Assembly: GCA_944393665.1 (NCBI GenBank)
Contig: CALYAX010000007.1
Coordinates: forward strand, 13,937-77,936
Reading direction: 5' to 3'
DNA from: an uncultured Alphaproteobacteria bacterium
GTDB taxonomy: Bacteria; Pseudomonadota; Alphaproteobacteria; RF32; CAG-239
Length of the DNA: 64,000 bases
Made by a program: the position numbers and the translations under genes. The number at the start of each line of letters is the position of its first letter. The first letter of the stretch is position 1. The notes under the pieces were generated by a model. The model worked only from the letters and a program-made list of their open reading frames with translations. It was not told the DNA's origin and made no database searches. Shown piece by piece: positions 26,120-28,822 of this stretch.

Positions 26120-28822
26120 TTATAATGCCCAATTAATGCCTGCCAAACCGTTCCAACCGTCACGTCCGCCTTCACGCCGGCTGACTTCCATAAACAGCTT
26201 CAAATCTTTCCCGAGCCAGTTTTTAGAAAATCCGACACCAACTTCGGCATAATTTTTTAATTCCATATCCGGCAACAGAATGCCATTGGCCCGAGAATCC
26301 TGCCCTTCGTTAAAATTAAAAACATAACGCCCTTTGACATAAATTTCCAACTCATCTTCAAACGCCTTAGAAAGTTTTATCCCGGGAGCCAACTCATAGT
26401 TTGACATTCCTTTAAACTTTACCCTGGCATTGCGGCCGGTCACATAATCATTACTGCTGATATAGGTGTAACTGCCATATAGATTAGGCTGGAAAGTATA
26501 ATCAGAGCCAAACTTGAAGTTATATCCGGTTTTAAGGGCCAGACCGCCTAAATACGACGTAAATTTATCTTTGTCTGTTTCCTGATGGGCACGATTTTCC
26601 ATAATTGCCGCATTTATCGTTGAACCGATATAAAACTGCCCTTTGGAAAAGATGGCGCTGGCACCAAGATATCCGCTTTCCTGATTGACATGCTGGCTGG
26701 AAAATTCATGTTCTCCTTTGGCATACGCCAGATAAATATTATAAATTGCTTGCCAATCGGCAGACAGGCGTATCGGCCTGGTTGACAGTCCGCCAATTAC
26801 ACCGTAAAATTTACTGTCACTATTGTGAAAATTCTTAATTTCAATCTTATCATCTGAACCAAACGTTTTTATAAAGGGTTTGATCCCGTATTCTCCGGAA
26901 CCAACATTAAAATTGCTGTCAGCATCGGCCAAAATGCGGCTGTAGATTTCATTACTGAGAACTGAAGTTGCTGCTGCGGCAGCATAAGAAGGAACTTTAA
27001 CCTCCGGGTTAATACTTTCTCGCTGAAATGTAAATTGGCCGCTATCTGCAAGATAATCTACCGTATAATTATAAACAGGCCCTGCAGCTTTGGTAACTTT
27101 ATTCTCGACCTGTCCGGCAAAAGAAACATCAGCAAAATCAACAGCGGTATATTCACCGCCGTCCGTTAAAACATTGACATGGTGAACTTTGACAGAAGTA
27201 TTGCCGCCGTTATAATTATCGGCAACAAATCGTCCCATTGCTGTTTTTCCCAAATCAACATCGGCATTATTAATATTAATTTCACCGCCATTAAGCTTTA
27301 ATTCCCGGAAATGGTGGTCAGCAAGCCCAAATCCGGAAAAAGTCAGCGTACCGTTATTCATTATCAAAGAGTTATTACGGTTACTGATATTGTTTATGTC
27401 ATCAAAGCTGACATTAACTGTCTCTGCCGCACGGGTTACTGGTGAGCTGCCAACGGATATATCACCGTTGCTGATATTAGCGTGAAAGGTTATTGCACCA
27501 CTGTTGTCACCGGACAGATTCAACTTGTATCCCTCGCCGCCATCGATATTATCATAAAAAGACAGATTTCCTGAATGGCGGGCAGTCAGATTGACCTCTG
27601 AATCTTCATCTTCCACATAGATGGCATTACTAACACCGCCCGCCGTATTTCCTTGAAATATTGAAGAAGCATTATCGGCAATAATACTGATTACTCCATA
27701 GTGATAAATAGCTCCTCCGGCCGTATCGGCACTATTATTGAAAAAATTTGTATTCATTACAACAGCTGTCCGCGGATTAGACAGGCTTGCCAGGCTGCCG
27801 TTATAAACAGCACCGCCGTAATCGGCATGGTTATTGATAAATTCGCCGGTTACATAAAAATCTTTTGCACTATTATTAAAGATAGCCCCGCCCTGGTCAG
27901 CCGCTGTATTGCCAATAAACAAACCATTGATTTTGCCGACGGTCGAATAACCGGAGAAATGCAAGGCACCTCCCGCACCGGCAGCTGTATTGGCAATAAA
28001 ATTGCCATTAATGTTACCAATGGCAATATTACTCATAATAGCGCCGCCATAAAAACCGCTGTTTGAGATAAAATCAGCATTCACATCGCCGATAATTCCA
28101 TGGTTATAAATTGCACCGCCCCAAGATCCTGCCTTATTGGCGATAAAATTTCCCTCAATCTTGCCAATCTGCACAATTCGGTCAAAGTAGTTCGTGTTAT
28201 TATAAATTGCGCCGCCCAAGTCACCAGACGAGTTACCAATGAAATTTCCTTTGATATCGCCGATAATTGCCGAGCCATGCCCGTTGCTGTCTACCTCGAC
28301 ATAATTAAAAATTGCCCCGCCATTACTGGTTGCTTTATTGTTAATAAAATCTCCTGTCACATTACCGATTTTCGCATTATTATTTTGCATAATTCCGTTA
28401 AAAATTGCGGCACCTTTATATGAGCTGTTATTAACAAAATCTGCATTAACTTCTCCGACCTGGTATTTGGTATTATAAATTGCACTTCCTTCAATTCCAT
28501 AAAAAGGCGAACCCAGATTTTGAATAGTTGATGAGGGAAGAAAACGGTTATTACTGCTGCAACTGTTATCTGCACAGGCATGAAGATGATATTCGTAATT
28601 ATAATAAGCCGGCTGCCAGGTCCCATTCTTTTCTTCATAAGTCATAAAATCATGGTTACCTTCTATTGCCGACATAAAATTCAGGCTATAAGCCGGATTG
28701 GCCAATGTTGCCTTATAATGCAGATAATCAAATGAAGCAGCTTCAACTTCTGTCATTGTAAACAGCACCGGCAGGCTGAACAAAACCGATATGCTTATTT
28801 TTTTCGAATATCTAAAAACCAT
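26120..28822 (-). CDS. Autotransporter with a Pmp-like passenger domain (multiple GGA[ILV] and FxxN repeats) and a C-terminal beta-barrel
   Basis: Signal peptide 'MVFRYSKKISISVLFSLPVLFTMTEVEAA'. At least 8 'F[IF]xN...GGAI[YF]N' units. The C-terminal 270 aa have alternating amphipathic beta-strands. Confidence 0.7.
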   Translation of the reverse strand: MVFRYSKKISISVLFSLPVLFTMTEVEAASFDYLHYKATLANPAYSLNFMSAIEGNHDFMTYEEKNGTWQPAYYNYEYHLHACADNSCSSNNRFLPSSTIQNLGSPFYGIEGSAIYNTKYQVGEVNADFVNNSSYKGAAIFNGIMQNNNAKIGNVTGDFINNKATSNGGAIFNYVEVDSNGHGSAIIGDIKGNFIGNSSGDLGGAIYNNTNYFDRIVQIGKIEGNFIANKAGSWGGAIYNHGIIGDVNADFISNSGFYGGAIMSNIAIGNINGNFIANTAAGAGGALHFSGYSTVGKINGLFIGNTAADQGGAIFNNSAKDFYVTGEFINNHADYGGAVYNGSLASLSNPRTAVVMNTNFFNNSADTAGGAIYHYGVISIIADNASSIFQGNTAGGVSNAIYVEDEDSEVNLTARHSGNLSFYDNIDGGEGYKLNLSGDNSGAITFHANISNGDISVGSSPVTRAAETVNVSFDDINNISNRNNSLIMNNGTLTFSGFGLADHHFRELKLNGGEININNADVDLGKTAMGRFVADNYNGGNTSVKVHHVNVLTDGGEYTAVDFADVSFAGQVENKVTKAAGPVYNYTVDYLADSGQFTFQRESINPEVKVPSYAAAAATSVLSNEIYSRILADADSNFNVGSGEYGIKPFIKTFGSDDKIEIKNFHNSDSKFYGVIGGLSTRPIRLSADWQAIYNIYLAYAKGEHEFSSQHVNQESGYLGASAIFSKGQFYIGSTINAAIMENRAHQETDKDKFTSYLGGLALKTGYNFKFGSDYTFQPNLYGSYTYISSNDYVTGRNARVKFKGMSNYELAPGIKLSKAFEDELEIYVKGRYVFNFNEGQDSRANGILLPDMELKNYAEVGVGFSKNWLGKDLKLFMEVSRREGGRDGWNGLAGINWAL

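Follow-up and report, generated by a model that had tools for sequence, protein, structure and literature searches.

The question raised by this locus is what a long protein with repeats of Pmp type is doing outside Chlamydia. The locus lies on the minus strand of contig CALYAX010000007.1, of which a stretch of 64,000 nucleotides was analysed (the whole of it is called the 64-kb window below), and it holds a gene for a 900-residue protein whose FxxN and GGA[ILV] motifs recall those of the chlamydial polymorphic membrane proteins (Pmps). Our data give strong grounds for regarding this protein, whose passenger is of Pmp type, as a classical type Va autotransporter, both in its architecture and in its mechanism of secretion. 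The complete reading that we favour, that of a type Va autotransporter presenting a surface-anchored β-helical adhesin, is likely, and on the adhesin role taken by itself our analysis leans modestly in favour. Computation shows the open reading frame (ORF) and its repeats, the matches to profiles, the fold that is predicted and how large the family is; how the protein is secreted and that it acts as an adhesin are what we infer.

Rungs in the repeat region follow the consensus [IV]G.I.G.FI.N…GGAI.N. A motif scan located eight GGA[ILV] tetrapeptides between residues 168 and 372, each with an FxxN motif 9-10 residues before it, and the eight canonical units so formed occupy residues 159-373 (window 27704-28348). 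The run opens with a degenerate first unit, FVNN…KGAAIFN (residue 129), closes with a degenerate tenth, FQGN…SNAIY (residue 389), and is followed by two rungs that hold FxxN only (residues 422 and 446). The interval between successive FxxN motifs is 24-35 residues, with five rung periods shorter than 27. When the 900-residue protein was shuffled 20,000 times with its composition preserved, GGA[ILV] appeared on average 0.20 times and FxxN-x(4-9)-GGA pairs 0.014 times, and none of the shuffles reached eight, which indicates that the repeat is real and goes far beyond what a Gly/Asn/Ala-rich composition would give. The initial annotation had counted at least eight tandem FIxN…GGAIYN units, a figure that our scan bears out. 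The match to Pmp profiles that it named as a check was also found when the check was run: Pfam family PF02415 (Chlam_PMP repeat) scores 31.8 bits against a cutoff of 20.6 and matches three stretches, and the NCBIfam model TIGR01376 (POMP_repeat) scores 25.2 bits against 15 and matches four. In the family alignments the F, N, G, G and A of the repeat fall in invariant or nearly invariant columns, and an aspartate, D424, within the family's FYDDIDG, is nearly invariant where the FxxN ladder ends. In models of Pmps, FxxN and GGA[ILV] are buried and packed together, with a ladder of Asn stabilising each rung (PMC10715098).

Type Va autotransporters are laid out as a signal peptide, a passenger, a helical linker and a PF03797 barrel (PMC9289746), and the features listed in Table 1 follow that order. 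An AlphaFold2 (AF2) model built on an alignment of 57 family sequences has a mean predicted local distance difference test (pLDDT) score of 87.3 and a predicted template modelling (pTM) score of 0.75. Residues 1-30 are the sole segment of the model with a pLDDT below 50, which fits a cleaved signal peptide, and residues ~107-604 form a continuous β-solenoid with a pLDDT mostly above 90. The part of the β-helix nearest the membrane, as modelled, occupies the position of an autochaperone without the PF07548 signature, and the linker that follows it carries [VI]L[SN]DEIYSR, a motif conserved family-wide. The C-terminal barrel of roughly 270 residues described in the initial annotation agrees with what we find, a linker helix at residues 606-630 and a barrel at residues 647-898, which together form a translocation unit of ~295 residues. 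Both checks that it proposed for this barrel gave the expected result, with 12 strands in the AF2 model and a PF03797 (autotransporter β-domain) score of 53.3 bits against a Pfam cutoff of 26 over residues 652-879. A sequence search of the PDB with the family profile returned no match at E<=0.01, so that the link to solved structures is by fold comparison only; by that comparison the passenger fold matches those of the Vag8 and pertactin passengers. Identity to these two passengers and to the translocators of Hbp, AIDA-I, NalP, BrkA and EspP is 10-16%, and the FxxN/GGA rung chemistry is absent from them.

Table 1. Positions, in the 64-kb window, of the predicted autotransporter gene, its protein segments and flanking signals, and of the lipid A/outer-membrane gene cluster
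Feature	Residues	Window position	Strand	Description and basis
Complete coding sequence, predicted Pmp-repeat type Va autotransporter	1-900	26120..28822	minus	900 residues + stop codon, ATG start; ORF listing, PF03797/PF02415/TIGR01376 above curated cutoffs, 99%-identical copy
Shine-Dalgarno-like sequence		28827..28835	minus	AGGAGAAGG, 5-13 nucleotides 5' of the ATG; read from sequence
Predicted Sec-type signal peptide	1-28	28739..28822	minus	Basic R4/K7/K8, 15-residue hydrophobic core I9-M23, VEA|A predicted cleavage site, no lipobox Cys; hydropathy scan
N-terminal cap	29-106	28505..28738	minus	Three-stranded β-sheet, strands 45-51, 59-65 and 68-80, block-mean pLDDT 87-94; AF2
Pmp-type repeat region	107-400	27623..28504	minus	~10 β-helix rungs of 24-35 residues; motif scan, shuffle test, PF02415/TIGR01376
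Membrane-proximal β-helix	401-605	27008..27622	minus	Without canonical motifs; two long antiparallel strands (584-591, 596-604) as a cap at its C-terminal end; pLDDT mostly >90
Linker	606-646	26885..27007	minus	α-helix 606-630 (…PSYAAAAATSVLSNEIYSRILADAD…), predicted in barrel pore; AF2
C-terminal β-barrel translocator	647-900	26123..26884	minus	12 long antiparallel strands, residues 647-898; ends …RREGGRDGWNGLAGINWAL
Terminator-like GC-rich hairpin		26002..26020	minus	GCCCCGCATCAGATGGGGC, then T-rich tail, ~100 nucleotides 3' of stop codon; consensus scan, pattern match only
Lipid A/outer-membrane cluster		44353-54515	minus	uppS-cdsA-rseP-bamA-lpxD-fabZ-lpxA-lpxI-lpxB; profile matches

Judging from the biology of type V secretion, the precursor would pass through Sec by its 28-residue signal peptide, after which the β-barrel assembly machinery (BAM) would insert the C-terminal 12-stranded barrel into the outer membrane and the linker helix would lodge in the barrel pore. 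The passenger would then thread out, folding from its C-terminal cap toward the N-terminus, and the product would be a right-handed β-helix of ~500 residues with roughly 16 rungs, about ten of them of Pmp type, bearing a small and fast-diverging N-terminal cap at the tip of the rod. Most likely the protein would remain on the cell surface as an adhesin, with a host, mucus or another cell as its ligand. The window also encodes BamA (49594-51855; TIGR03303, 780 bits), 21 kb from the autotransporter, and together with the lipid A genes this indicates that both the insertion machinery and an outer membrane of lipopolysaccharide type are present.

Pmps and other β-helical autotransporters serve as adhesins (PMC9289746, PMC8326573), and the way in which conservation is distributed along the protein is consistent with such a role here. 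Among the orthologues that share 54-61% identity with it, identity amounts to 35-49% in the N-terminal cap, 49-62% in the rungs and 53-67% over the proximal helix and barrel (53-65% for the barrel, and 54-67% for the proximal helix, which in most of these orthologues is the best-conserved part of the passenger). The distal tip thus diverges fastest, the pattern expected of an exposed tip that faces a ligand or the immune system. The cap that forms this tip is a subfamily-specific domain, and no other part of the mature protein is as divergent; it has no Pfam match, and it contains the only two cysteines of the protein, C83 and C88.

Several points weigh against this reading and have to be set beside it. 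The signal peptide was assigned heuristically, without a dedicated predictor, and none of the adhesion motifs RGD, KGD, LDV or poly-Pro occurs in the protein. The genes immediately around that for the autotransporter differ from one orthologue to the next, so that genomic context gives no functional information. AF2 may over-predict β-solenoids from repeat sequences (bioRxiv 10.1101/2024.10.30.621056), a concern that is tempered here by repeats that are natural and imperfect and by an alignment that supports the model. Furthermore, the barrel ends in …GINWAL, with a terminal Leu (26123-26125) and not the usual aromatic residue of the β-signal. This non-aromatic end is the sole weak point through which the ORF might be taken for a chance reading frame, a pseudogene or an artefact of assembly, an explanation that we consider barely credible given an intact ORF of 900 residues, significant domain matches and a confident fold. 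The same …NWAL C-terminus is found in the 99%-identical copy from an independent sample (P0001, L001), and other assemblies contain orthologues of 896-914 residues that share 54-61% identity; Phe or Trp is the last residue in the remaining close relatives inspected, and Phe in 73 of the 120 relatives retrieved. As to function, β-helical passengers can also be immune modulators, toxins or enzymes. A passenger secreted by the same route might be cleaved and released, or act mainly as a soluble or immune-modulating factor instead of an anchored adhesin, for which Vag8, binding C1-inhibitor, and released SPATE-type passengers are precedents. We regard this as unlikely, since the protein has no protease domain or recognisable cleavage motif, its Pfam matches are to the repeats and the barrel only, and the likeness to Vag8 stays at the level of a generic β-helix, with 11% identity. 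The pectin-lyase-like fold could in principle also allow the passenger to be a carbohydrate-active enzyme displayed on the surface (a lyase, epimerase or glycosidase, for example). The fold matches in question lie at 7-13% identity and describe a generic fold, there is no DPHD motif, and no enzyme family was matched in Pfam or NCBIfam. Across the 57 relatives, 113 passenger positions are conserved in at least 80%; 93 of them are G, I, N, A or F, with no His, Lys, Arg, Glu or Cys among the 113. This points to a structural scaffold and away from an enzyme. Since conserved residues of catalytic type are lacking, we rejected an enzymatic passenger, whose probability is very low.

A further alternative is that the protein is a bona fide chlamydial Pmp, acquired from or shared with Chlamydiae and marking an invasive or intracellular lifestyle. 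The FxxN and GGA[ILV] repeats, the matches to Pmp repeat profiles and the autotransporter barrel all speak for it, and the likeness to C. trachomatis PmpD and C. pneumoniae Pmp21 extends from the order of parts (signal peptide, β-helical passenger, linker, PF03797 barrel) to one FxxN and GGA[ILV] pair per rung with PF02415/TIGR01376 matches, a motif-free membrane-proximal helix capped by two long antiparallel strands, an aspartate (D424) at the end of the ladder that recalls the Asp of Pmp 'rung 0', and a presumed role as adhesin. However, the middle domain PF07548 (PMP_M), found alongside the repeats in genuine chlamydial Pmps (PMC11166332, PMC10715098), is missing from the present protein at E<=1 and from all 40 relatives scanned at E<=0.01; at the level of sequence, that is, because a capped proximal helix that is structurally analogous is predicted. 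No Pmp equivalog of NCBIfam matches the protein significantly. Its rungs are mostly 24-35 residues, several of them, at 24-26, below the 27 or more of chlamydial rungs (PMC10715098), and the protein is shorter (900 residues), with ~10 Pmp-type rungs compared to 9-25, has an N-terminal cap domain of its own, and stands as a single copy in the 64-kb window, in contrast to a cluster of paralogues. The nearest relatives are metagenome proteins, and the only named homologue retrieved, at 32% identity, comes from the metagenome-assembled genome (MAG) 'Cyanobacteria bacterium SIG26'. The window moreover encodes ComEC along with lipid A and BAM clusters that look complete, with no sign of a reduced intracellular genome within its 64 kb, and the host is non-chlamydial and probably alphaproteobacterial. 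The initial annotation had called the repeats the defining ones of chlamydial Pmps, which does not hold, with fewer than one third of the PF02415 proteins in UniProt being chlamydial (PMC11166332); for the invasin role and intracellular lifestyle that it suggested we found no supporting sign. A chlamydial origin is therefore highly improbable. The protein is a type Va autotransporter and a Pmp-like member of the broad PF02415 superfamily, and the absent PF07548, the shorter rungs and the different host are reasons not to class it among the chlamydial Pmps.

The adhesin-type autotransporter that we favour belongs to a large family. HMMER, run exhaustively against 1.84 billion cluster representatives (clusters at 50% identity), matched 3,123 clusters at E<=1e-3, of which 1,353 remain at E<=1e-10 and 396 at E<=1e-30, and in many of the matching clusters the best match lies between query residues ~650-900, the barrel, and at their own C-terminus. 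All close relatives are metagenome or MAG proteins, comprising the one 99% copy and nine clusters of 896-914 residues at 54-61% identity; a populous group at 39-40% identity is mostly 977-1025 residues long. A Pfam scan of a 40-member set of relatives found PF02415 in 26 (best E-value 4.8e-49) and PF03797 in four, even though the family's barrels align well with one another. PF03797 thus misses most barrels of the family, which suggests that surveys based on domains undercount Pmp-repeat autotransporters. A barrel divergent enough to be found by PF03797 in only those four also sets the family apart from classical β-helical autotransporters. A profile search of genome contigs listed at least five distant matches, in gut MAGs labelled 'Alphaproteobacteria/Rickettsiales', of which four cover the barrel only at 25-27% identity and one is a 40-residue fragment. 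Two such MAG relatives (L002 5773-6885 and L004 5611-6726) are proteins of 370 residues that match over linker and barrel with little or no passenger, and they are not orthologues.

Repeats of the PF02415 type have also been described in archaea (Methanobrevibacter), Trichomonas, Akkermansia and Phycisphaerae (PMC11166332, PMC10715098). Compared by description, Akkermansia glycaniphila A0A1C7PBX1, from a gut bacterium, is alike in its PF02415-type rungs, predicted β-helix and classical autotransporter organisation, yet has 43 coils where the present protein is much shorter, and the Phycisphaerae, Methanobrevibacter and Trichomonas proteins likewise combine PF02415-type rungs with a predicted β-helix outside Chlamydia. 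Unlike these non-chlamydial proteins, the present one belongs to a subfamily of its own, with a conserved N-terminal cap and the C-terminal motif RREGGRxGW. The architecture of a Pmp-repeat autotransporter outside Chlamydia is already known and common, and the present protein adds an ordinary member.

At the level of the gene, the autotransporter looks like an accessory, fast-evolving surface gene that stands outside any operon. Its GC content is 41%, and GC at third codon positions (GC3) is 0.38, compared to 0.50-0.56 in the genes for ClpB, BamA, TopA and LysS. One flank consists of conserved genes for a MerR regulator, a cupin and an FMN reductase that are 66-70% identical to their counterparts at the P0005 locus, and the other is a variable region; the immediate neighbours vary among the orthologues, as seen at the P0002 and P0005 loci. 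No paralogue of the autotransporter occurs within the 64-kb window. The gene contains no tandem repeats at the DNA level, which indicates that the protein rungs are old and diverged and not recent duplications. A run of seven A lies on the coding strand at 28798-28804, in signal-peptide codons (S-K-K-I), and is the sole homopolymer of at least seven bases in or near the gene. Phase or antigenic variation by DNA repeats was considered and rejected, there being no tandem repeats and the A7 run being too short for a claim of slipped-strand phase variation.

Divergent from the autotransporter, across an intergenic region of 406 bp with 29% GC, lies a gene for a 680-residue protein (29229-31271, plus strand). 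It has a borderline dsRNA-binding motif (PF00035, 23.1 bits vs a cutoff of 23, residues 124-188) followed by a Lys/Glu-rich stretch, and it matches no family besides PF00035. Only four homologue clusters were found among 5.8 billion proteins, and its GC3, at 0.41, is low, as is the autotransporter's. A functional link between the two was rejected because this neighbour is not conserved beside the orthologues of the autotransporter: P0002 and P0005 differ in their immediate neighbours, and the upstream 641-residue gene in L011 is unrelated.

One might go further and read the ~900-residue subfamily as a lineage-specific and horizontally mobile factor by which uncultured gut-type Alphaproteobacteria colonise, with a fast-evolving tip domain that would bind a specific ligand of a host or protist and would act as a determinant of tropism and not as a generic sticky rod. 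Such a proposal would draw on the N-terminal cap with its conserved Cys pair, the divergent barrel ending in RREGGRxGW, a GC3 below that of core genes and a location bordering a variable region; we hold it to be quite doubtful.

The initial annotation had also placed the protein in a proteobacterial background. Its identification as a Pmp-like autotransporter stands, and the background is plausible: the host is probably an alphaproteobacterial diderm, judged from LpxI and DUF4167 only. The gene for DUF4167 adjoins that for ClpB in the window, and we take both this arrangement and LpxI to be markers of alphaproteobacterial type. In the lipid A cluster, LpxI (PF06230, PF17930) stands in for LpxH, and cdsA and rseP have no dxr between them, which serves as a taxonomic hint.

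Elsewhere in the window, an island of low GC (8000-22700, 31% GC compared to 48% in its flanks) starts just 3' of a tRNA-Glu gene (7698-7772). Its core is an operon-like, co-directional run on the plus strand (11372-17557) that encodes a protein resembling class-I tyrosyl- or tryptophanyl-tRNA synthetases (TyrRS/TrpRS; PF00579, 198 bits), a sulfotransferase, a Glycos_transf_3 protein, a zinc-dependent alcohol dehydrogenase, a HAD hydrolase and a second, divergent tRNA-synt_1b paralogue, and genes for Hypoth_Ymh, GNAT and Mrr-type nuclease proteins come after it. The island looks like a horizontally acquired cluster for the biosynthesis of, or resistance to, a small molecule, possibly of aminoacyl or nucleoside type. 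An ORF of 912 residues (1000-3738, plus strand) matches nothing in Pfam or NCBIfam at E<=1e-5.

For the family, the lesson of this locus is one of caution, in that FxxN and GGA[ILV] repeats are not a signature of Chlamydia or of an intracellular life. For the organism, the value of the finding lies mainly in annotation, as it provides a confidently modelled surface protein for an uncultured, probably alphaproteobacterial lineage, which could serve as a handle for sorting or enriching cells, or be taken up as a candidate adhesin or antigen.

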